Assembly: GCF_003018235.1 (NCBI RefSeq)
Contig: NZ_CP027437.1
DNA length: 64,000 nucleotides
DNA from: Escherichia coli
Lineage (GTDB): Bacteria > Pseudomonadota > Gammaproteobacteria > Enterobacterales > Enterobacteriaceae
Direction: 5' to 3' (one strand)
Part shown: piece after piece, positions 1,938 to 57,507 of the stretch
How the letters are laid out: every line of letters starts with the position of its first letter
How positions within the stretch are numbered: the stretch's first letter is position 1
The notes under the pieces: model-generated
Told to the model about the DNA's origin: nothing
The model's database searches: none
What the model saw: only the letters and a program-made list of their open reading frames with translations
Translations under genes and position numbers: made by a program

Positions 1938-3142
1938 TAATCCACCAATAATTCCAGCGCGCGGTCAACGGCATTCACCAGCGCATCCACATCACTCTTT
2001 GTATTATATGGCGCAAAAGAGGCGCGCAGTGTGCCGGTTACGCCTAATTCTGCCAGTAGCGGCTGAGCGCAATGCTGCCCGGCCCGCAGGGCAATACCGT
2101 ACTCCGCCAGCAGCGTCACCATATCGCTGTGATGAACGCCAGCAAAATCAAAGGCCAGCAGGCTGGAATCCTGGCAGCGAAATGAGCGGAAGCCAGGACG
2201 TTTTGCCAGCGCATCTTCCGCCAGCGTTGCTAAGCTACGGCTCCAGCTTTCGGCCTGGTTGATATCGTAATCTGCCAGCCATTCCAGCGCCGCGCTTAAT
2301 CCTATGACACCAGCGACATTTGGCGTTCCGGCTTCCAGTTTCCACGGCGCAGATTGAGTCGTGAAGCCGTCAAAACTCACTTCGTGAATCATTTTGCCGC
2401 CACCCAGCCAGGGTGACATCGCTTCCAGCAGTTCTGATTTGCCATACAGCACGCCGATACCCGTCGGGCCATACAGTTTGTGACCAGAGAAAGCATAGAA
2501 ATCAATATCCAGTTGCTGAACATCCGCAGGGAAATGCACCGCCCCCTGAGCACCATCAACCATCACCACCATCCCGGCTGAATGAGCAAAGGTAATCGCT
2601 CGCGCCAGATCCGGGCAACCGCCAGTGACGTTCGACATTTGTCCCAGAGCAAGAATTCGACTACGAGGTGTGATCAGTTCTGGCAACAAATCGACATCCG
2701 GCAATCGCTGCGCATTAAGCGGCAATTTCACCACTTTGGCTCCCGTTTGTTGGGCGACCATCAGCCAGGGGACGAGGTTAGCGTGGTGTTCTGCCACGCT
2801 GACAATAATCTCATCGCCCGGTTGCAGACGCGGACGCGCATAGCATTGTGCCACCATGTTGATGGATTCAGTGGTGCCGCGCGTCCAGACGATAGTTTTA
2901 TCATCCGGTGCATTCAGTAATTGCGCCACTTTCTCTCGTGCAGCTTCATAACGCGCGGTCAGGCGTTGGGCTTCGGCAAACTGGCTGCGATGGACGTTTC
3001 CGGCGCTCAGGCTGTAAAACTGTCGAGTGGCTTCAACCACGGCTTCAGGTTTAAGCGCGGTCGCGGCGCTGTCGAGATAGACGCCCGCATCCTGTAGCGC
3101 GGGAAACTGGGCGCGAAACTGCGCGGGATTAAAAACGTTCAT
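1937..3142 (-). CDS. csdA: Cysteine desulfurase CsdA (PLP-dependent aminotransferase class V)
   Basis: Track ORF 1937..3178; I place the start at the internal ATG (rc of cat at 3140-3142) giving MNVFNPAQF... and 401 aa, the length I recall for CsdA. Confidence 0.88.
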
Positions 3143-3333
3143 GGTACTCCTCGGCTTGATGCACCGATCGTGACGCAAAATTCACTTTGATACAAGGAGG
3201 GTGCTAACCATCAGAATTATCTGGATATCCTGGCGAAGCCGCGTCAGTAACATATGCTGAATAGTGTTAGGCGTTAATTTTAGCCTGTTAATCAATACTA
3301 TTAAGATTTATTAATCGCTTTAAGGAGAAGATG

Positions 3334-3561
3334 ATGAAAAAGACTGCCGCAATTATTTCTGCCTGTATGCTGACTTTTGCCCTGAGCGCCTGTTCCGGTT
3401 CGAACTATGTGATGCACACCAATGACGGACGTACCATCGTCTCTGACGGCAAACCACAGACTGATAACGATACCGGTATGATTTCGTATAAAGACGCTAA
3501 TGGCAACAAACAGCAGATCAACCGTACCGACGTGAAAGAGATGGTCGAACTGGATCAGTAA
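3334..3561 (+). CDS. ygdI: Small lipoprotein (DUF903 family)
   Basis: 75-aa ORF with signal peptide and lipobox LSAC; tandem ATG, second one chosen; located between csdA and gcvB. Confidence 0.8.
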
Positions 3562-3577
3562 TTCGCGATCGCAAGGT

Positions 3578-3783
3578 AAAAAAAAGCACCGCAATTAGGC
3601 GGTGCTACATTAATCACTATGGACAGACAGGGTAAATGTACAGGAAGTGAAAAAAGGTAGCTTTGCTACCATGGTCTGAATCGCAGACCAATTGCAAACA
3701 CAACAACACAACATCACAACCGTAAGCCAAAAGTTCACCAGAACACGCATTCCGATAAAACTTTTCGTTCCGGCTCAGGAAGT
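3578..3783 (-). ncRNA. gcvB: GcvB small regulatory RNA (Hfq-dependent, represses amino-acid transporter mRNAs)
   Basis: The reverse complement of this interval reads ACTTCCTGAGCCGGAACGAAAAGTTTTATCGG...GT-rich stretch TGTGATGTTGTGTTGTTGTGTTTG...terminator hairpin GCACCGCCTAATTGCGGTGC followed by a T-run, matching the gcvB sequence as I remember it; it is divergent from gcvA as expected and 206 nt long. Confidence 0.9.
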
Positions 3784-3911
3784 GCCGCCACTATAGGTAT
3801 TTGCTGGTAGAAGCTCAACGGACAATTTATAATGGCTCAGATTAAAAAAACTAATAGGTTACACAGTGTGATCTAATTGTTAAATTCATTTAACATCAAA
3901 GTTTAAAAGCC

Positions 3912-4829
3912 ATGTCTAAACGATTACCACCGCTAAATGCCTTACGAGTTTTTGATGCCGCAGCACGCCATTTAAGTTTCACTCGCGCAGCAGAAGAGCT
4001 TTTTGTGACCCAGGCCGCAGTAAGTCATCAAATCAAGTCTCTTGAGGATTTTCTGGGGCTAAAACTATTCCGCCGCCGTAATCGTTCACTCCTGCTGACC
4101 GAGGAAGGTCAAAGCTATTTCCTCGATATCAAAGAGATATTTTCGCAATTAACCGAAGCGACGCGTAAACTCCAGGCCCGTAGCGCCAAGGGGGCGTTGA
4201 CGGTCAGTTTACTCCCCAGTTTCGCCATTCATTGGTTGGTTCCGCGACTTTCCAGCTTTAATTCAGCTTATCCGGGAATTGACGTTCGAATCCAGGCGGT
4301 TGATCGTCAGGAAGATAAGCTGGCGGATGATGTTGATGTGGCGATATTTTATGGTCGGGGCAACTGGCCGGGGCTACGGGTGGAAAAACTGTACGCCGAA
4401 TATTTATTGCCGGTGTGTTCGCCGCTACTGCTGACTGGCGAAAAACCCTTGAAGACCCCGGAAGATCTGGCTAAACATACGTTATTACATGATGCGTCAC
4501 GCCGTGACTGGCAGACATATACTCGCCAATTGGGGTTAAATCATATCAACGTTCAGCAAGGGCCAATTTTTAGCCATAGCGCCATGGTGCTGCAAGCGGC
4601 TATTCACGGGCAGGGAGTGGCGCTGGCAAATAACGTGATGGCGCAATCTGAAATCGAGGCCGGACGTCTTGTTTGCCCGTTTAATGATGTTCTGGTCAGT
4701 AAAAATGCTTTTTATCTGGTTTGTCATGACAGTCAGGCAGAACTGGGTAAAATAGCCGCCTTTCGCCAATGGATCCTGGCGAAAGCCGCTGCTGAACAAG
4801 AAAAATTCCGCTTTCGTTATGAACAATAA
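3912..4829 (+). CDS. gcvA: LysR-family transcriptional regulator of the glycine cleavage system
   Basis: 305-aa ORF with an N-terminal LysR helix-turn-helix (LNALRVFDAAARHLSFTRAAEELFVTQAAVSHQIKSLE); divergent from gcvB. Confidence 0.92.
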   Translation: MSKRLPPLNALRVFDAAARHLSFTRAAEELFVTQAAVSHQIKSLEDFLGLKLFRRRNRSLLLTEEGQSYFLDIKEIFSQLTEATRKLQARSAKGALTVSLLPSFAIHWLVPRLSSFNSAYPGIDVRIQAVDRQEDKLADDVDVAIFYGRGNWPGLRVEKLYAEYLLPVCSPLLLTGEKPLKTPEDLAKHTLLHDASRRDWQTYTRQLGLNHINVQQGPIFSHSAMVLQAAIHGQGVALANNVMAQSEIEAGRLVCPFNDVLVSKNAFYLVCHDSQAELGKIAAFRQWILAKAAAEQEKFRFRYEQ

Positions 4830-4847: not shown

Positions 4848-5243
4848 ATGACCAGCCGTTTTATGCTGATTTTCGCCGCCATTAGCGGCTTCATTTTTGT
4901 GGCTCTGGGCGCTTTTGGCGCGCATGTGTTAAGTAAAACCATGGGGGCCGTTGAGATGGGCTGGATCCAGACCGGTCTCGAATATCAGGCGTTCCATACG
5001 CTGGCGATCTTAGGTCTGGCGGTGGCAATGCAGCGTCGCATCAGTATCTGGTTTTACTGGAGTAGCGTTTTCCTCGCGTTAGGCACGGTGCTGTTCAGCG
5101 GCAGCCTTTATTGCCTGGCGCTGTCCCATCTGCGTTTGTGGGCATTTGTCACACCGGTTGGCGGCGTGAGCTTCCTCGCGGGCTGGGCGTTAATGTTAGT
5201 TGGTGCTATCCGTTTAAAGCGCAAGGGCGTAAGTCATGAATAA
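4848..5243 (+). CDS. ygdD: Small inner-membrane protein (DUF423)
   Basis: 131-aa hydrophobic ORF; its 3' end overlaps the rlmM start. Confidence 0.85.
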
Positions 5244-6336
5244 GGTTGTATTGCTGTGCCGTCCGGGCTTTGAAAAAGAGTGCGCCGCAGAAATTACCGA
5301 TAAAGCCGGCCAGCGGGAAATTTTCGGTTTTGCCCGCGTGAAAGAGAATGCGGGTTATGTCATTTATGAATGTTATCAACCTGATGATGGCGATAAGTTA
5401 ATCCGTGAGCTGCCGTTCAGTTCATTAATTTTTGCCCGCCAGTGGTTTGTGGTGGGGGAACTCCTGCAGCATTTGCCGCCAGAAGATCGTATTACCCCCA
5501 TTGTCGGCATGTTACAGGGTGTAGTAGAGAAGGGCGGTGAACTGCGTGTTGAAGTTGCCGATACCAACGAAAGCAAAGAGTTGCTGAAATTCTGCCGTAA
5601 ATTCACCGTGCCGCTACGCGCTGCCTTGCGCGATGCGGGTGTGCTGGCGAACTATGAAACGCCGAAGCGTCCGGTTGTGCATGTATTCTTTATTGCACCA
5701 GGCTGCTGCTATACCGGTTACTCATACAGCAACAATAATTCGCCGTTCTATATGGGCATTCCGCGCCTGAAATTTCCGGCAGATGCGCCGAGTCGTTCCA
5801 CGCTCAAACTGGAAGAGGCATTTCATGTGTTTATTCCTGCGGATGAGTGGGATGAACGCCTGGCGAACGGGATGTGGGCGGTGGATTTAGGCGCTTGCCC
5901 AGGCGGCTGGACCTACCAACTGGTGAAGCGCAACATGTGGGTTTATTCCGTCGACAACGGCCCGATGGCGCAAAGTCTGATGGATACCGGACAGGTGACG
6001 TGGCTGCGGGAAGACGGTTTCAAATTCCGTCCGATACGCAGCAATATCTCCTGGATGGTATGCGATATGGTTGAAAAACCGGCGAAAGTTGCGGCATTGA
6101 TGGCGCAGTGGCTGGTTAATGGCTGGTGCCGTGAAACCATTTTCAACCTCAAACTGCCGATGAAAAAACGCTACGAAGAAGTGTCACACAATCTGGCGTA
6201 TATTCAGGCACAGCTTGATGAACATGGCATAAATGCTCAGATTCAGGCGCGGCAGTTGTATCACGATCGCGAAGAAGTGACGGTGCACGTCCGCCGCATC
6301 TGGGCTGCGGTGGGTGGTCGTCGCGACGAGCGATAA
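5236..6336 (+). CDS. rlmM: 23S rRNA 2'-O-ribose C2498 methyltransferase
   Basis: 366-aa ORF matching RlmM (YgdE) in length and sequence as I recall it. Confidence 0.9.
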
Positions 6337-6379
6337 CAGGCAAGGCCGGGGCGTCGTCTCCGGCCTGCTACCCTTTCCG

Positions 6380-7111
6380 TCAGGCTGTTACCAAAGAAGT
6401 TGCAACCTGGCGCTCATCAGAAATAATGTGCGTTACCTCATCCAGATGCCCGATGCGGGCTTCCCCTGAACGATTAAATTTACTTTTATCAATCAATAAC
6501 AACGATTGCGCGGCACGTTTTAATAGCATCGATTTGTAATCAGCGTTGATGGCATTGGAGTCCCACAGTGCGCCGCTGCTATCGATCCCTTCACAAGAAA
6601 AAATAAACAGATCGATTTCCAGCGATTTAAGTTGGGAAATCAGCGAGGGATTGACGTAACAGCCATATTTGCGCTCAAGTGTGCCGCCGGAACTGATCAG
6701 TTGAATGCGTTCGCGTTTACCGAGTTCATGGCAAATCGGATGGCTATTGGTGAAGACCTGAATGTTGATGTCAGGCAACTGGCGTGCCAGATACCAGCAA
6801 GTTGAACTGGCGTCTAAGGCTATCACCATCCCTTCTTCAATCCACGCGAGCGCCTCGCGCGCGATATCTGCTTTATGCGCATAATGGCTTTTCAGCCGGA
6901 TGTGAAAGGGATCGCCACTGTCTTGATTTTGACGGTGGATATATTTAGCGCGCCCATGATTGCGCAGAATTTTACCCTGCGTCTGTAATTCATTGAGATC
7001 GCGACGAATGGTTTCTTTACTGACCTTTAGCTGTTCAGAGAGAGCTTCCGTGGTCAGGCTGGTATGGTTCAGCAGCAGGTCGACTATCGCTTGCTGGCGT
7101 GCCGCTTTCAT
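6380..7111 (-). CDS. fucR: DeoR-family activator of the L-fucose regulon
   Basis: Track ORF of 246 aa starts at a GTG; I place the start at the ATG three codons in (MKAARQQ...), giving 243 aa; DeoR-type HTH and sugar-binding domain. Confidence 0.88.
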   Translation of the reverse strand: MKAARQQAIVDLLLNHTSLTTEALSEQLKVSKETIRRDLNELQTQGKILRNHGRAKYIHRQNQDSGDPFHIRLKSHYAHKADIAREALAWIEEGMVIALDASSTCWYLARQLPDINIQVFTNSHPICHELGKRERIQLISSGGTLERKYGCYVNPSLISQLKSLEIDLFIFSCEGIDSSGALWDSNAINADYKSMLLKRAAQSLLLIDKSKFNRSGEARIGHLDEVTHIISDERQVATSLVTA

Positions 7112-7168
7112 ATTTTTCACCCCATCATTCGATAACCGCCCGCGTCATGCGGGCGTACCGGTATGAGA

Positions 7169-7591
7169 TTACGGTGTTACCCCTTTTTTTAAAAGAATAT
7201 TCCCGTACTTCGCTCGTTCGCCTGTGATAACGATCGCAAAGGCTTTTTGTGCCCGTTCATAAAACGCAAAACGATTGATGCGGATGATGTCAGGACACGG
7301 GGCTTGTAGTGAAAGCGCATTACGGTAACGTCGTTCTACTTCAGGATCGAGAGTGTCACCTTCTACCGCCGCCATCATCACCAGCGGCGGTGCATAACTG
7401 TCCAGTTCAAATAACGGGATAATCGCCTGGAGCAAGTCGCTCACCAACAGGCCATCAGCGCGGATCACCTGCGGTCCCATCGAATGGGCGGGAAAGTGAG
7501 CATCGGAAAAAATAATTTCATCTCCATGCCCCATCTCTGCCAGCACTTTCAATAGTTCGGGAGAAATTAACGGCGAAATTGTTTTCAGCAT
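7169..7591 (-). CDS. fucU: L-fucose mutarotase
   Basis: 140-aa ORF, RbsD/FucU family. Confidence 0.9.
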
Positions 7592-7592
7592 T

Positions 7593-9011
7593 TCACACTT
7601 CCTCTATAAATTCAGGTTCAGTTTGCGGGTAGAAATAACGGTACTGATAATGAATCTGCGCGCGGGCTTCCTCCGGGCTGTTAAATTCCCCTACGCCATA
7701 CCAACCGAACAGCGCAGCTCCTGCGACGGTCGTTTCGGCGTCGTCGAGAACTTTTACCGGAATATCAAGCATATTGGCTTTAATCTGATTCCACAATGTG
7801 TTGCGACTTCCTCCACCGACTAACAATAATTCAGAGGCTTTAAAGTGCCCGATTTTTTCCAGCATCTGTAGATTGTGCTGTAATTGCGCAGTTAACCCTT
7901 CCAGCGCCGCGCGATAGAAATGCCCCCGCGTGGTATTAAGCGTCACTCCTTGCCAGCCAGCGTTCTGACACGACAATAAATCACACTGCATTTTCACGCC
8001 ATCCGCGCCAGGTGCGATCAGACGAGCTTCTTCAATCAACATTTGCCAGGGTGTTTCAGCCGTCCAGAACAGTTTTCTCACCCATTCCAGCACGCCGGAT
8101 GCCAGCCATTGCATACCTGGGTTATACAACCCTGCCTGGCTATCCAGTTCGCAGGTGGAACCGGCGTACTGACTTAACAGCGAAGTATCAACTTGGGCGC
8201 TGCGGACCATTAAAATTTCCCATGTACCGGAAGAGAGCACGGGTTCATTTTGTTCGGCACCAGCGCCAAAAAGGGCGAACTGGGTATCGTGACCTGCGGA
8301 AATCACCGGTATGCCAACGGGTAAGCCGAGCATTGCTGCGGCGCTGTTCTGTAACGTACCAATCTGTTCACCCGCTTCCACCAGACGAGGGAAGAGTCGG
8401 CGTGGAATACCGGTGGCTTGTAAAATTTGCGGACTGAAATCGCGTTGCTGGATATCCAGCATCTGGCTGGTTCCGGCCATCGTGATATCAGTAGTGAATT
8501 CGCCGGTTAAACGGTGGTTAATCAGCGACGAAATAAAGAGCCAGGCGTGCGCGCGTTCCAGCAGTTGTGGATGATTTTCTTTCAACCACACCAACTTATA
8601 TAACGTATTGAAACTAAAGGCTCCGACGCCAGAAATAGCCTGCAACTGCTGTGCGGAGATCAACCGTTCAATATTGTCCATTACCGCTGCTGTTCGCGGA
8701 CATTTCCAGCTAATGATCGGATAGAGCAGATTGCCTTGCTTATCTACCAGAGCGCCATCCACACCAAAGGTGGTGACGGCGATACCGCGGATGTGGCAAT
8801 CAGTCAGTTCACTATTGATTTGCCGACAGCAATCAGCAAAGCGTTGCAAAATGGCGTCTAAAGACCACTGGTGCCAGGTGTTGTTTTCCATCGCGATATC
8901 GCTGGCATTAGGCGTTGAGGCGCGGGCAACAATTTTTCCCTGCCGATTAACCGCGATGGCCCTGACATTGGTCGCGCCACAGTCGAGTACCAGGATAACT
9001 TCTTGTTTCAT
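7593..9011 (-). CDS. fucK: L-fuculokinase (FGGY family)
   Basis: Track ORF 7593..9041 (482 aa). The internal ATG at 9011 is preceded by a good Shine-Dalgarno (GCAGGAGCGATT-ATG), whereas the ATG at 9041 has none and sits inside a hairpin; I favour 9011 (472 aa) but the longer form is possible. Confidence 0.85.
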
Positions 9012-9119
9012 AATCGCTCCTGCAATATAGCCGGATAACATTGCTTATCCGGCTAACCACTCTTGCTTGTTCAGGCCCGGTAGCCGGAGCGACCGGGCAT
9101 CACATCAGGGAGTAATGTA

Positions 9120-10895
9120 TTAACGCTTGTACAACGGGCCGTAGTTCTGGCAAGCGCGGTAATCCTGGCCTTCAATATCCATGCCGTGCGCGGCCCAGGC
9201 AGAAGGACGATACACTTTGGTCTCTTCAACGTTGTGCATACATACCGGGATACGCAGCATGGAGGCAAGAGTGATAAAGTCTGCGCCAACGTGGCCGATG
9301 GTCAGAACCCCGTGGTTAGCGCCCCAGTTCGCCATTACCGAGTACACATCCGTAAACGGCCCTTTACCGGTGAGGCGCGGTGCAAACCAGGTGGTTGGCC
9401 AGGTTGAGTTGGTGCGTTTGTTGAGGATGTCATGCACATCCTTCGGCAATTCCACGCTCCAGCCTTCCGCGATTTGCAGTACCGGTCCCAGGCCTTTGAT
9501 GATGTTGACACGAGTCATGGTGAACGGGACGCCGCCTTCGGTAAGGAAGCGGGAAGAGTAACCGCCGCCACGGAAGTATTCGTGGATCGCCGGGCACCAT
9601 TCGGTAGCGGCGAGGCAAGCGTCAGCCTCTTGCTGAGAGATTTCCCAGTGTGGCTTCATCGTCGGGTTACCTTCGCTGTCGCGTTGTTTACAGGAACCGT
9701 CCAGCGCAGCAGAACCGGAGTTGATCAAATGGATGATGCCGTGTTCTGCCAGTCCATCCAGTTTATGCCCCGTTACACGTTCAATTGCTTCTGGTGACCA
9801 GTAGGTACGCACATCGGCAAATACCTGAGCGGTGCCGGTGAGCTGGTGACCCATTAGCATTGCCACGCCGTTAAGACTGTCGTTTTCAGTCGCCACGACA
9901 AAGGGTTCGCGCACGCCATTCCAGTCAAATGAACTGTTAAGGATCGCTTCGGCGGTGTCGCCATTGGGATATTGATCGGTCCAGTGGCGTTGCCCCTGGA
10001 AGCCCGCAGCGATGGCGTTGTAGCCAAGTGATTCTTCCACGCGACCGATATCGGCCAGTTTGCTGTTGCCTTGCATCATGTCGCGGATACACATCGCCAT
10101 CAGTAAACTTTCGCGCAGAACTGCGCGGCTTTGCTCGGCATTGCGTTGATACTGTTTGTTATTTTCATCTTCGCCATAGCGGAAGTTTTTATCAGCCCAG
10201 GCCAGCGCCATTTCCAGTTCGGCTTCGTCGTAAATCTTCTGATCGATACGGCGACGCAGTTCGGTCATATCCACCGCCTGGACTTTCATTCCCAGCCAGG
10301 ATTCAAAGAAGTTGTGATCAACAATAGAACCGGCGATACCCATCGAAACGCCGCCCAGCGACAGATAGCTTTTACCTTTCATGCTGGCGACGGCCAAACC
10401 GGCGCGGGCAAAGCGCAGCAGTTTTTCTTCAACATCAGCAGGAATCGATGTGTCATCGGCATCCTGAACGTCATGACCGTAAATGGAGAATGCCGGGATG
10501 CCTTTCTGGCTGTGAGCTGCCAGAGCCGCTGCCAGGTAAACAGCGCCGGGGCGTTCAGTGCCGTTAAAGCCCCAAATGGCTTTCGGGCGGGTTGGATCCA
10601 TGTCGATAGTTTCACTGCCATAGCACCAGCAAGGCGTTACCGTAATGGTGAGGCCTACATTCTGACTGCTGAATTTTTCTTCGCAAGCAGCGGCTTCAGC
10701 CATACCCGCGATACAGGTATCGGAAATGACACACTCGACGGCAGCTTCGCAGGCATGGCGCAGTTTCTCGGTCAGCAGTGCGGCCGTAGCTTTCGCCATA
10801 TTCATTGTTTGTTCTTCAAGCGACTCACGAACACCCATGCGACGACCGTCAATAACCGGGCGGATACCAATTTTCGGTAAGCTGATTTTTTTCAT
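9120..10895 (-). CDS. fucI: L-fucose isomerase
   Basis: 591-aa ORF matching FucI. Confidence 0.93.
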
Positions 10896-10927
10896 TACAG
10901 ATTCCTCACTTTATTCGGAAAATATGT

Positions 10928-12244
10928 TCAGTTAGTTGCCGTTTGAGAACGGAAACGGGCAAAGATAAAGATGACTGCGAAGCAGAGTGCCGGGATCAGT
11001 TCGGCAGTGGGGATGTTGCCCGCTGCGTCACTGACAAAACCCATGACCGGAGTGACAATACCGCCGCCAATAATGGTCATAACGATGAAGGACGAACCGT
11101 ATTTGGTGTCCTGGCCGAGATTCTTAATGCCCAGCGAGAAGATTGTTGGGTACTGAATCGACATAAAGGCACTGCATAATGTCAGGGCTATTAAGCCCAC
11201 ATGACCGCCAGCGAAGGCTGAGATCAGGCACAGTGCCATAGCGATTAATGCGTAGGCTGCCAGGACTTTGTGTGGTGCGAAGCGACTGATGAGCCAGGTA
11301 CCGGTGAAACGACCAATAAAGAAGCACACCATGGTTCCGGTTAAATAGTTAGCGGCAAAGCCTGCGGTCATACCTGGAATTTCTTCTACAGCGTAGCGAA
11401 TCAAATAGCTCCAGCAGGCCGTTTGCGCGCCGACATAGCAGAATTGCGCTAATACCGCCCAGCGCCAGTGACGAATACGCGCCAGACGAGAAAGCGATGC
11501 GGAGAACGATCCTTGTTTGGCGTCACTGTGATTATCACTCTGCAATGCCGGGAATTTCGTCAGCATGATCAGCAGGGCGACCAGTAACACGATAGCCACG
11601 ATGATCATATAAGGTGTCTGTACCGATAATACCAGGCTGTGTTTATACGCACTCAATTGCTCTGGAGACATTTTATCGAGAACGTCTTGCGATTGATGTG
11701 GCACGTTAGACAAAATAAGACTTTGCCCAAAGACAACCGCGATAATTGCGCCAAACGAGTTAAATGTTTGCGCAAGATTTAAGCGGAAGTGACCACTGCT
11801 TTCCGGCCCTAATACCGTAACAAAAGGGTTTGCGGCAGTTTCCAGACAACCTAATCCGGCTGCAATAATAAATAGGCCAACTAAAAATAAGGTGTAGTTC
11901 ATTATTTCTGCAGCGGGCCAGAATAATGCAGCGCCCAAGGCATATAAAAATAATCCGGTAATAATCCCTGCTTTATAACTGAGTTTTTTCATCAATATCC
12001 CAGCAGGGATTGGGATAATGAAATAACCAAAGTAAAAGGCCGATTGGATCAGGCCAGCCTGGAAATTTGTCAGCGTAAAAGCCTGCTGGAATTGAGGTAA
12101 TAAAATGTCGTTAAGGTTATTGGCTACCGCCCAAAGAAAAAACAGTGAGCACAGCAGCGCGAATGGAATAATGTAACTTCTGCTTTGCCCTGCATCTTTA
12201 TCTACCGCACGGTAACTCTGCGTTTGTATTGATGTGTTTCCCAT
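10928..12244 (-). CDS. fucP: L-fucose:H+ symporter (MFS)
   Basis: 438-aa polytopic membrane ORF, first gene of the fucPIKUR operon. Confidence 0.92.
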   Translation of the reverse strand: MGNTSIQTQSYRAVDKDAGQSRSYIIPFALLCSLFFLWAVANNLNDILLPQFQQAFTLTNFQAGLIQSAFYFGYFIIPIPAGILMKKLSYKAGIITGLFLYALGAALFWPAAEIMNYTLFLVGLFIIAAGLGCLETAANPFVTVLGPESSGHFRLNLAQTFNSFGAIIAVVFGQSLILSNVPHQSQDVLDKMSPEQLSAYKHSLVLSVQTPYMIIVAIVLLVALLIMLTKFPALQSDNHSDAKQGSFSASLSRLARIRHWRWAVLAQFCYVGAQTACWSYLIRYAVEEIPGMTAGFAANYLTGTMVCFFIGRFTGTWLISRFAPHKVLAAYALIAMALCLISAFAGGHVGLIALTLCSAFMSIQYPTIFSLGIKNLGQDTKYGSSFIVMTIIGGGIVTPVMGFVSDAAGNIPTAELIPALCFAVIFIFARFRSQTATN

Positions 12245-12790
12245 AGCATCCTCTTAGGTTCAGAAGCTTAAGCACGTAATCGGTTATGTTTTCAAAAGTG
12301 CAAAACCAGCGAGTTCGGGCTTCATATCAGTGAATATTTGCCTGTCAGAAATGAACTCATGGATTCATTTTCAAATAAAAAACGCTCTGTAATATGACGG
12401 CGGTCACACTTATTAGCTGGGAGGTGACTTTATGTGACTACCATCACTTTAATAATCGAAATTTCATGCCCGTTTCAGAAAATAAATCATAAAAAACACA
12501 AACCCGATGACCGTATTAATTGTTTGTGCCGAAAACGGGCATTTCTGGCGAGGGGGAATGGAAAAATGACCGTTTTGATAAATATTTTTAAGAGCGGTCA
12601 TTTTTAATAGGGTTATAAAAAGAGAACTTGCAGTTATTTACTGTGATTAGTTGAACCAGGTCACAAAATATAAGCTTGTGAATTTCTTTCTGGTTAATCA
12701 GGAAGAAGATGGTGGGTAATTAAACGGCTAATTCAATAGTGTGAAAGGAACAACATTATTGCCCTGTTTTGAATCAGAGAGAGGTAGCTA
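12245..12790. promoter_or_regulatory. Divergent fucPIKUR / fucAO control region with a candidate CRP site
   Basis: 546-bp AT-rich non-coding interval between divergent operons; TGTGA-N6-TCACT at 12433-12448 is a near-consensus CRP half-site pair. No FucR site could be assigned from sequence alone. Confidence 0.5.
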
Positions 12791-13438
12791 ATGGAACGAA
12801 ATAAACTTGCTCGTCAGATTATTGACACTTGCCTGGAAATGACCCGCCTAGGACTGAACCAGGGGACAGCGGGTAACGTCAGTGTACGTTATCAGGATGG
12901 GATGCTGATTACGCCTACTGGTATTCCATATGAAAAACTGACGGAGTCGCATATTGTCTTTATTGATGGCAACGGTAAACATGAGGAAGGAAAACTCCCC
13001 TCAAGCGAATGGCGTTTCCATATGGCGGCCTATCAAAGCAGACCGGATGCCAACGCGGTTGTTCACAATCATGCCGTTCATTGCACAGCAGTTTCCATTC
13101 TTAACCGACCGATCCCCGCTATTCACTACATGATTGCGGCGGCTGGCGGTAATTCTATTCCTTGCGCGCCTTATGCGACCTTTGGAACACGCGAACTTTC
13201 TGAACATGTTGCGCTGGCTCTCAAAAATCGTAAGGCAACTTTGTTACAACATCATGGGCTTATCGCTTGTGAGGTGAATCTGGAGAAAGCGTTATGGCTG
13301 GCGCATGAAGTTGAAGTGCTGGCGCAACTTTACCTGACGACCCTGGCGATTACGGACCCGGTGCCAGTGCTGAGCGATGAAGAGATTGCCGTAGTGCTGG
13401 AGAAATTCAAAACCTACGGGTTACGGATTGAAGAGTAA
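12791..13438 (+). CDS. fucA: L-fuculose-1-phosphate aldolase
   Basis: 215-aa ORF, class II aldolase. Confidence 0.92.
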   Translation: MERNKLARQIIDTCLEMTRLGLNQGTAGNVSVRYQDGMLITPTGIPYEKLTESHIVFIDGNGKHEEGKLPSSEWRFHMAAYQSRPDANAVVHNHAVHCTAVSILNRPIPAIHYMIAAAGGNSIPCAPYATFGTRELSEHVALALKNRKATLLQHHGLIACEVNLEKALWLAHEVEVLAQLYLTTLAITDPVPVLSDEEIAVVLEKFKTYGLRIEE

Positions 13439-13465
13439 TTTCGTAAAGCAACAAGGAGAAGGATG

Positions 13466-14614
13466 ATGGCTAACAGAATGATTCTGAACGAAACGGCATG
13501 GTTTGGTCGGGGGGCTGTTGGAGCTTTAACCGATGAGGTGAAACGCCGTGGTTATCAGAAGGCGCTGATCGTCACCGATAAAACGCTGGTGCAATGCGGC
13601 GTGGTGGCAAAAGTGACCGATAAGATGGATGCTGCAGGGCTGGCATGGGCGATTTACGACGGCGTAGTGCCCAACCCAACAATTACTGTCGTCAAAGAAG
13701 GGCTCGGTGTATTCCAGAATAGCGGCGCGGATTACCTGATCGCTATTGGTGGTGGTTCTCCACAGGATACTTGTAAAGCGATTGGCATTATCAGCAACAA
13801 CCCGGAGTTTGCCGATGTGCGTAGCCTGGAAGGGCTTTCCCCGACCAATAAACCCAGTGTACCGATTCTGGCAATCCCCACCACAGCAGGCACTGCGGCA
13901 GAAGTGACCATTAACTACGTGATTACTGACGAAGAGAAACGGCGCAAGTTTGTTTGCGTTGATCCGCATGATATCCCGCAGGTGGCGTTTATTGACGCTG
14001 ACATGATGGATGGTATGCCTCCAGCGCTGAAAGCTGCGACGGGTGTCGATGCGCTCACTCATGCTATTGAGGGGTATATTACCCGTGGCGCGTGGGCGCT
14101 AACCGATGCACTGCACATTAAAGCGATTGAAATCATTGCTGGGGCGCTGCGAGGATCGGTTGCTGGTGATAAGGATGCCGGAGAAGAAATGGCGCTCGGG
14201 CAGTATGTTGCGGGTATGGGCTTCTCGAATGTTGGGTTAGGGTTGGTGCATGGTATGGCGCATCCACTGGGCGCGTTTTATAACACTCCACACGGTGTTG
14301 CGAACGCCATCCTGTTACCGCATGTCATGCGCTATAACGCTGACTTTACCGGTGAGAAGTACCGCGATATCGCGCGCGTTATGGGCGTGAAAGTGGAAGG
14401 TATGAGCCTGGAAGAGGCGCGTAATGCCGCTGTTGAAGCGGTGTTTGCTCTCAACCGTGATGTCGGTATTCCGCCACATTTGCGTGACGTTGGTGTACGC
14501 AAGGAAGACATTCCGGCACTGGCGCAGGCGGCGCTTGATGACGTTTGTACCGGTGGCAACCCGCGCGAAGCAACGCTTGAGGATATTGTAGAGCTTTACC
14601 ATACCGCCTGGTAA
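13466..14614 (+). CDS. fucO: Lactaldehyde reductase (L-1,2-propanediol oxidoreductase, Fe-dependent alcohol dehydrogenase)
   Basis: Tandem ATGs at 13463 and 13466; the second has the better spacing from AAGGAG at 13453-13458 and gives the 382-aa form. Confidence 0.9.
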   Translation: MANRMILNETAWFGRGAVGALTDEVKRRGYQKALIVTDKTLVQCGVVAKVTDKMDAAGLAWAIYDGVVPNPTITVVKEGLGVFQNSGADYLIAIGGGSPQDTCKAIGIISNNPEFADVRSLEGLSPTNKPSVPILAIPTTAGTAAEVTINYVITDEEKRRKFVCVDPHDIPQVAFIDADMMDGMPPALKAATGVDALTHAIEGYITRGAWALTDALHIKAIEIIAGALRGSVAGDKDAGEEMALGQYVAGMGFSNVGLGLVHGMAHPLGAFYNTPHGVANAILLPHVMRYNADFTGEKYRDIARVMGVKVEGMSLEEARNAAVEAVFALNRDVGIPPHLRDVGVRKEDIPALAQAALDDVCTGGNPREATLEDIVELYHTAW

Positions 14615-14632: not shown

Positions 14633-14665
14633 GCCGGATGCGACGCTAGCTGCGTCTTATCCGGC
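14633..14665. repeat. REP (repetitive extragenic palindrome) element between fucO and xni
   Basis: GCCGGATGCGACGCTAGCTGCGTCTTATCCGGC, an imperfect palindrome of the REP type in a convergent intergenic gap. Confidence 0.6.
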
Positions 14666-50902: not shown

Positions 50903-50950
50903 CGTGCAGCCGGATGATCCTGCCTACGGTTCTGGGCTGGGGACTTGTAA

Positions 50951-50983
50951 GCCTGATAAGACGCGTCAAGCGTCGCATCAGGC
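50951..50983. repeat. REP element (inside a small BIME-like cluster spanning about 50903-51020)
   Basis: GCCTGATAAGACGCGTCAAGCGTCGCATCAGGC palindrome between convergent ygcQ and ygcP; flanking GCCGGATG / GGATGTGGCGTGCAGCC motifs are also REP-like. Confidence 0.6.
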
Positions 50984-57434: not shown

Positions 57435-57454
57435 CCATCAGCCCGGTCTTGTAG

Positions 57455-57486
57455 GCCTGATAAGACGCGTGAGCGTCGCATCAGGC
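57455..57486. repeat. REP element between cysI and cysH
   Basis: GCCTGATAAGACGCGTGAGCGTCGCATCAGGC, nearly identical to the REP at 50951-50983. Confidence 0.6.
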
Positions 57487-57507
57487 AAGGCAAACAGTGA
57501 GGAATCT

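Follow-up and report, generated by a model that had tools for sequence, protein, structure and literature searches.

Conserved, apparently REP-derived hairpins lie at the expression step between fucI and fucK in Escherichia coli

REPs, and the inverted pairs of them that constitute BIMEs, are GC-rich extragenic palindromes of the Enterobacteriaceae, and their canonical copies carry a GTAG/CTAC foot, i.e. the recognition site of the RAYT transposase. It is known that REPs, like other stem-loops inside operons, halt 3'-to-5' exonucleases and thereby protect the segment upstream of them, the classic case being malE-malF, and many more internal protective stem-loops have been mapped by Dar and Sorek (PMC5927463; PMC6061677). 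BIMEs have also been tied to attenuation, according to a work cited (as reference 32) in PMC6061677. A related case is the galE-galT hairpin, which is described as setting the stable 3' end of the upstream sub-transcript once Rho has terminated transcription or RNase E has cleaved the RNA (PMC11925234).

Here we compare with these systems the junction between fucI and fucK in the fucPIKUR operon, which lies on the minus strand of the window (by which we mean the whole 64,000-nt stretch of E. coli DNA that was analysed; positions refer to it). In the direction of the mRNA, the fucI UAA is followed by a 21-nt leader, a first stem-loop (hairpin A), a 19-nt linker and a second stem-loop (hairpin B), after which 6 nt, the Shine-Dalgarno sequence AGGAG and another 5 nt lead up to the fucK AUG (Table 1). 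Of 5426 complete E. coli genomes, 5424 have the spacer, which is identical in MG1655/K-12, and an 801-nt query over the site gave at least 99% identity in 5043 of the 5424 matching genomes.

Table 1. Features of the fucI-fucK junction and other elements of the window
Feature	Position	Strand	Details
fucI (L-fucose isomerase) CDS	9120-10895	-	ORF list; C-terminal translation ...NYGPLYKR*; RefSeq annotation of identical strain
fucI stop codon TAA	9122-9120	-	
fucI-fucK intercistronic spacer	9012-9119	-	108 nt
Hairpin A	9075-9098	-	mRNA GCCCGGUCGC-UCCG-GCUACCGGGC, -17.4 kcal/mol; R1 rank 9, 12.1 bits, E = 0.29
Hairpin B	9028-9055	-	mRNA UAGCCGGAUAA-GCAAUG-UUAUCCGGCUA, -16.7 kcal/mol; R1 rank 3, 16.8 bits, E = 0.015
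Long-ORF (482-aa) ATG	9041-9039	-	in hairpin B loop, without Shine-Dalgarno sequence
fucK Shine-Dalgarno sequence AGGAG	9021-9017	-	5 nt upstream of ATG 9011
fucK short start ATG	9011-9009	-	
fucK (L-fuculokinase)	7593-9011	-	472 aa; RefSeq and PGAP; TIGR02628 equivalog, 844.5 bits
Genuine REP	57451-57486		R1 rank 1, 29.5 bits; just upstream of gene start
Genuine REP	50947-50983		R1 rank 2, 21.8 bits; degenerate partner at 50909-50927
Other REP or REP-like palindromes found with R1	14633-14665; 1452-1483; 6345-6368		
fucP-leader complement to Spot 42	12273-12283	-	CCGATTACGTG; 11 nt, perfect, to Spot 42 nt 46-56
fucU-fucR gap, with GC-rich hairpin	7112-7168	-	hairpin CGCCCGC-AUGA(C)-GCGGGCG; no U-tract
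Sub-threshold Twister-sister match (Rfam)	6333-6426	+	convergent rlmM/fucR gap; 24.2 bits against gathering threshold 34, E = 0.09

The arms of hairpin B (9028-9038 and 9045-9055; TAGCCGGATAA and TTATCCGGCTA) are 100% complementary over 11 bp and enclose a 6-nt loop, which bears out the original prediction of a perfect hairpin at 9029-9054 in a 108-bp gap and lengthens it by one pair. The second GC-rich palindrome that had been placed at about 9071-9100 corresponds to hairpin A, the arms of which (9075-9084 and 9089-9098) cover 10 positions with one C.U mismatch and close on a 4-nt loop, C(UCCG)G, of the UNCG tetraloop type. A 141-nt region folds at -49.2 kcal/mol as compared to -35.9 +/- 3.6 for shuffled sequences (z = -3.7; none of 200 shuffles as good), and the hairpins taken singly gave z-scores of -3.4 (A) and -6.4 (B), so that the structures exceed what is expected by chance. 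The non-coding gap thus holds two GC-rich stem-loops, as a BIME would, and the tails of these, CUGAACAAG and UAUAUUGCA, are not the U-tracts of an intrinsic terminator. Scans of 8700-9400 yielded neither a sigma-70 promoter nor a terminator-like site, which leaves both an internal fucK promoter and a classical terminator without support. An Rfam scan of 6000-13500 at permissive E-values gave no match in the fucI-fucK gap; its only hit, the sub-threshold Twister-sister match, shares sequence with a REP-like GC hairpin and is in all likelihood due to chance.

The start of fucK had been considered ambiguous, as its frame is open from ATG 9041, from where a 482-aa protein would be made. The original prediction rightly placed this codon within a hairpin and without a ribosome-binding site, and rightly favoured ATG 9011 with its canonical one (AGGAG, 5-nt spacer); the start is nevertheless not truly ambiguous, for RefSeq K-12 (NP_417283.2) and PGAP already have a 472-aa FucK begin at 9011. 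At this position fucK begins with ATGAA(A/G/T), i.e. MK(Q/N), in 44 of 44 related species, the N-terminus reading MK(Q/N)(E/D) across the related species compared, while the upstream codon is ATA instead of ATG in E. albertii and the N-terminal extension is absent from every other genus compared. Moreover, in the 482-aa translation it is residues 14-473 that are matched by positions 1-465 of TIGR02628, which leaves the extension outside the model, and the alignments to the PDB homologues (FGGY kinases of solved structure) begin at its residues 13-14. Given also that a hairpin of -16.7 kcal/mol holds the upstream ATG in its loop, a 482-aa form as the real or an additional FucK isoform is exceedingly improbable, the open frame notwithstanding. 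The start question is settled in favour of ATG 9011, in agreement with the current annotation, and the 10-residue extension is an artefact of a frame that is open through the palindrome.

What the original prediction missed is that the hairpins are of REP origin, which became apparent from the fucI-fucK gaps extracted from the loci of 44 related species in a genome collection. Some 30 species of Citrobacter, Klebsiella, Salmonella and Raoultella have two inverted canonical REPs (e.g. GCCCGGTGGCGCAAGCTTACCGGGCCTAC, a spacer and GTAGGCCGGATAAGCGCAGCGCCATCCGGC) in this gap, which in them is about 93-125 nt long, and an alignment from the fucI TAA to the conserved fucK GGAG-ATG makes the E. coli hairpins match these foreign REPs arm by arm. 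By position, hairpin A is homologous to the GCCCGGTGGCG...TTACCGGGCCTAC REP of other genera and hairpin B to their GTAGGCCGGATAAG...CATCCGGC REP; the columns GCCCGGT...TACCGGG are invariant and the columns CCGG...ATCCGGC nearly so, and the GGAG is invariant in an 18-sequence alignment of related gaps. The orthologous site thus holds canonical REPs in relatives, as descent from REPs implies.

A covariance model (R1) was built from 24 in-gap REPs of other genera, in-gap copies being used because the fetched loci held only 3 REP copies outside the gap, and was run unfiltered over the whole window (Table 1). The score of hairpin B falls between those of two clear REPs (29.5 and 21.8 bits) and that of the more REP-like copy at 14633 (14.4 bits). 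The model matched hairpin A on the plus strand and hairpin B on the minus strand, 19 nt apart, i.e. as an inverted doublet (BIME/REPIN) in the same arrangement as the foreign doublets. Two hallmarks of a REP are missing. The foot is lost, hairpin A having CTGA for CTAC and hairpin B GTTA for GTAG (GTAG being present in 24 of 24 related REPs), and the hairpins are not dispersed, as 41-nt queries with A and B found a median of 1 place per E. coli genome, whereas the canonical REP at 57448-57490 occurs in at least 40 places in every E. coli genome. The term 'degenerate, domesticated REP doublet' therefore fits better than 'REP', and, judged by this comparison of sequences, hairpins A and B appear to descend from a REP doublet (BIME) that has degenerated and is present in a single copy. 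No REP feature is present in the gap in the K-12 RefSeq record NC_000913.3, but the copy that was used is devoid of any repeat_region, even in the control interval 5000-6500, which makes the absence uninformative; we take that interval to carry an annotated RIP/REP element. A search of the literature returned no paper that connects REP with fucI or fucK, and the fucI-fucK hairpins would be a previously undescribed instance of a known mechanism.

A stable stem-loop is present in the gap in all 44 species, yet of differing kinds, namely a REP doublet, a hairpin with a T-run or another long repeat, and the gaps fold at -0.24 to -0.59 kcal/mol per nt across the species compared. The junction is therefore always structured, but from unrelated parts. 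Short gaps of 50-57 nt with a single GC-rich hairpin are found in Raoultella terrigena, two Enterobacter species, Kosakonia, Buttiauxella and Escherichia whittamii, and in several short-gap species the hairpin is followed by a T-run; that of R. terrigena (GCCCTTTCATCGCGAAAGGGC plus T7) passes the terminator scan. Two Citrobacter genomes have a different, longer imperfect palindrome, which we presume to be ERIC-like and to which other loci of E. coli genomes give partial matches. The first hairpin begins 4-14 nt past the fucI stop in most other genera, as against 21 nt in E. coli.

Some individual loci deserve a remark. The 54-nt gap of E. whittamii (2947-3000 of its locus) has a hairpin-A-like stem-loop alone (GCCCGGTGGCGTAACGTCTACCGGG followed by TTTAT), and its FucK is 87% identical to that of E. 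coli, as compared to 96% for E. albertii; taken together, these features indicate that the fuc locus has had a different history there. A genome labelled Serratia marcescens (1001295B) has a fuc locus of the Citrobacter/Klebsiella type with a REP doublet and may be mislabelled. A 382-nt low-coverage contig that is 98% identical to E. coli fucK, found in the actinobacterial assembly of Agrococcus sp. HG114, is probably a contamination.

Divergence was measured between the window and three Escherichia lineages, for the spacer and for the fourfold-degenerate sites of fucI and fucK. The spacer differed at 3 of 108 positions from Escherichia sp. MOD1 (fourfold sites 66/509; Fisher p = 1e-3), at 2 of 108 from E. 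albertii (101/505; p = 1.5e-7) and at 7 of 108 from a divergent 'E. coli' (130/502; p = 3e-6), i.e. it diverges 4-10 times more slowly than the fourfold-degenerate sites of its flanking genes. Third codon positions diverge on either side of the gap, which implies that there is no recent recombination tract. The convergent fucR-rlmM gap outside the operon shows 12-19% divergence, and the fucP-fucI and fucU-fucR gaps are as conserved as the fucI-fucK spacer. In a survey of 11 sequences from Escherichia (the three lineages above in addition to the window, K-12 and six other E. coli genomes), the 42 stem positions had two substitutions, both of which preserve pairing (U-A to U.G in O157:H7 and G-C to G.U in the divergent 'E. 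coli'), and 4 of the 10 loop positions were variable, one change (UCCG to UUCG) again giving a UNCG tetraloop; this contrast between stems and loops rests on only some 15 variable sites. The slow divergence places the spacer under strong purifying selection. The unpaired leader and linker are likewise conserved, which exceeds what the stability of the hairpins by itself requires, and conservation of the whole 108 nt, unpaired parts included, would also allow for a stable processed RNA or for a binding site of a protein or sRNA.

A natural exception is E. coli 13KWH46 (NZ_CP019250.1), where a 1331-bp IS3-family element (2670-4000 of its locus) is inserted in the loop of hairpin A, at a site that maps to 9085-9089 of the window, with a 5-bp target duplication (CGGAG). 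From its ends, TGGATTTGCCCC... and ...GGGGCCAGTCTA, we take this element to be IS2. The insertion fits reports of REPs as targets of insertion sequences (PMC1525189).

The expression of the operon can be read from the RNA-seq data of Kim et al. (Table S2; PMC6410053) for MG1655 in exponential growth on fucose. In the three replicates the RPKM values were 9957, 10783 and 12930 for fucP, 10507, 13627 and 13529 for fucI, 3281, 4645 and 4920 for fucK, 3257, 4884 and 4769 for fucU, and 246, 281 and 340 for fucR. The ratio of fucI to fucK mRNA is thus 3.2, 2.9 and 2.75 by replicate, with fucP/fucI and fucK/fucU both close to 1, so that a drop of about 2.9-fold sits exactly at the fucI-fucK junction, with more mRNA upstream than downstream, as in differential decay of the malEFG type; being a steady-state value from a single study, this step is equally compatible with termination, decay and internal processing. 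The same study found that fuculose accumulates and is exported on fucose, and its authors suggest that fucK expression is insufficient (PMC6410053). In the Term-seq and decay datasets that are available, the fuc operon is not expressed; the searched parts of PMC5927463, PMC6061677, PMC7815308 and PMC9122600 gave no fuc 3'-end or decay data, and no fuc expression data were found in PMC6452873.

A further drop in mRNA, of about 15-fold, occurs from fucU to fucR (PMC6410053). The gap between these genes contains a second GC-rich intercistronic hairpin (Table 1), which coincides with this drop, and among Escherichia species the 57 nt of the gap differ at 0-1 positions.

The original prediction that the hairpins may set differential expression within the operon fits both the step of about 2.9-fold and the purifying selection, and the part of it that concerns causation is correlative: that the hairpins bring the step about by blocking decay is what we infer from anatomy, conservation and steady-state RNA levels. 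From its sequence record the hairpin pair, which is real and conserved, is probably functional. On balance we favour, with some confidence, the reading that the spacer carries domesticated REP-doublet stem-loops which mark, and probably create, the step from fucPI to fucKUR, most likely as a barrier to 3'-exonucleases, with or without attenuation. Endonucleolytic cleavage or termination downstream of the hairpins would be followed by 3'-to-5' exonucleases being halted at them, such that the fucPI segment would outlast the fucKUR segment, and attenuation of transcription at or after the hairpins might add to the step. Hairpin B would meanwhile leave AGGAG and ATG 9011 exposed and hide the spurious ATG 9041 in its loop. 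According to Liang, Rudd and Deutscher (2015), REPs within about 15 nt of a stop codon reportedly interfere with terminating ribosomes; hairpin A, at 21 nt, is beyond this range. A point against the favoured reading is that E. whittamii manages with hairpin A alone.

The main rival to such a decay barrier is attenuation, i.e. that the step results mainly from partial termination (Rho-dependent or weakly intrinsic) in or just after the gap and not from protection of the mRNA. It has in its favour that several genera, such as that of R. terrigena, have a hairpin with a T-run at the very same gap, that attenuation associated with BIMEs is cited in PMC6061677 and that steady-state RNA-seq does not separate termination from decay. 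Nevertheless, with neither E. coli hairpin having a U-tract, no terminator in the 8700-9400 scan and a gap so short (108 nt) and so largely base-paired that little unstructured C-rich RNA is left for the loading of Rho, we regard attenuation as the main cause as rather unlikely, and the decay barrier is preferred, possibly in combination with termination further downstream. Still less probable is that the hairpins are neutral relics, i.e. dead remains of selfish REPs, and that the step has another cause, like the stability or translation of the coding regions. Such decay would account for the lost GTAG/CTAC feet and the single-copy sequences, for the wide variation of the gap content among genera and for the tolerance of one natural strain to an IS insertion (IS2-like) in the loop of hairpin A. 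It is difficult to reconcile, however, with a spacer divergence 4-10 times below that of neighbouring synonymous sites (p down to 1.5e-7), with the fixation of the spacer in 5424 of 5426 genomes and with stem changes that keep the pairing, all of which argue against a neutral relic, nor would it lead one to expect some stable hairpin at the gap in every genus compared.

It is also conceivable, but we consider it very unlikely, that hairpin B controls the translation of fucK, in that it would insulate the Shine-Dalgarno sequence against pairing with upstream RNA or would alternate with a pairing to fucK codons 5-9 that encloses the initiation region. Hairpin B ends just 6 nt before AGGAG, and fucK codons 5-9 (GUUAUCCUGGUA) resemble its 3' arm, so that an alternative pairing with its 5' arm can be drawn (82% complementarity to 8988-8998 inside fucK, repeat I2). 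The first 150 nt of fucK (8862-9011) moreover show a low third-position divergence of 1, 2 and 4 of 50, as against 7-12 of 50 for most of the later 150-nt bins of fucK when the two more divergent lineages are compared. Yet the alternative helix has two mismatches and competes with a hairpin of 11 perfect pairs, the step was measured in mRNA and would be explained only indirectly, and the resemblance is explicable by conserved V-I-L-V codons; it may reflect a constraint on mRNA structure, or chance.

According to reviews, fucI and fucK are among the targets of Spot 42. A Spot 42 site in the fucI-fucK gap was considered and rejected, as the sole long complement in the operon mRNA is the 11-nt one in the 5' leader of fucP (Table 1), some 29-39 nt upstream of the fucP ATG (12244). 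By its complementarity, this site may explain why fucI and fucK emerged as Spot 42 targets in overexpression arrays.

The junction locates, and probably explains, the unequal output of fucPIKUR, in which the mRNA for permease and isomerase is about three times that for the kinase and that for FucR is lower still. The overflow of fuculose on fucose and the engineering of fucose and 2'-fucosyllactose strains are matters for which this is relevant. The junction is also a clear case of a selfish REP doublet having lost its mobility signals, become single-copy and come under purifying selection. An interesting angle is that differing elements were recruited to one junction in different genera. As a tentative extension, which we put forward as possible though not probable, the fucI|fucK junction may be a selected expression step that was rebuilt several times in the Enterobacteriaceae from unrelated parts: in Escherichia from a domesticated single-copy REP pair with a UNCG cap, and elsewhere from an intrinsic-terminator-like hairpin, from a live REP doublet or from a longer repeat resembling ERIC. 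If so, selfish REPs would have been co-opted and then frozen, keeping FucK and FucR below the permease and the isomerase.

The fucI-fucK hairpins would represent an ordinary kind of operon tuning of a well-known class, and how they relate to the described members of that class can be summarized as follows. With the REPs and BIMEs of the Enterobacteriaceae they share that they are extragenic GC-rich palindromes of about 25-35 nt in an inverted pair, the arms of which carry the REP cores GCCGGATAAG...ATCCGGC and GCCCGGT...ACCGGGC; unlike canonical copies, they have no GTAG/CTAC foot, are internally shortened (hairpin B now being a perfect palindrome) and are single-copy and strongly conserved instead of variable and present in at least 40 places per genome. 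The malE-malF REP stabiliser likewise is an intercistronic stem-loop between an abundant upstream and a scarcer downstream segment, its protective role being established there, as opposed to deduced from anatomy, conservation and steady-state RNA-seq as in the fuc operon. Intrinsic terminators and attenuators have in common with the junction a GC-rich hairpin at the end of a cistron, complete with T-run in Raoultella, Enterobacter and similar short-gap species, but the E. coli hairpins differ from them in having no U-tract and no terminator-like site in the scan. The galE-galT hairpin, finally, accompanies a graded expression along a sugar-catabolic operon as in fuc (PMC11925234); it is not REP-derived, unlike the fuc hairpins, to which a comparable role could be ascribed by analogy.
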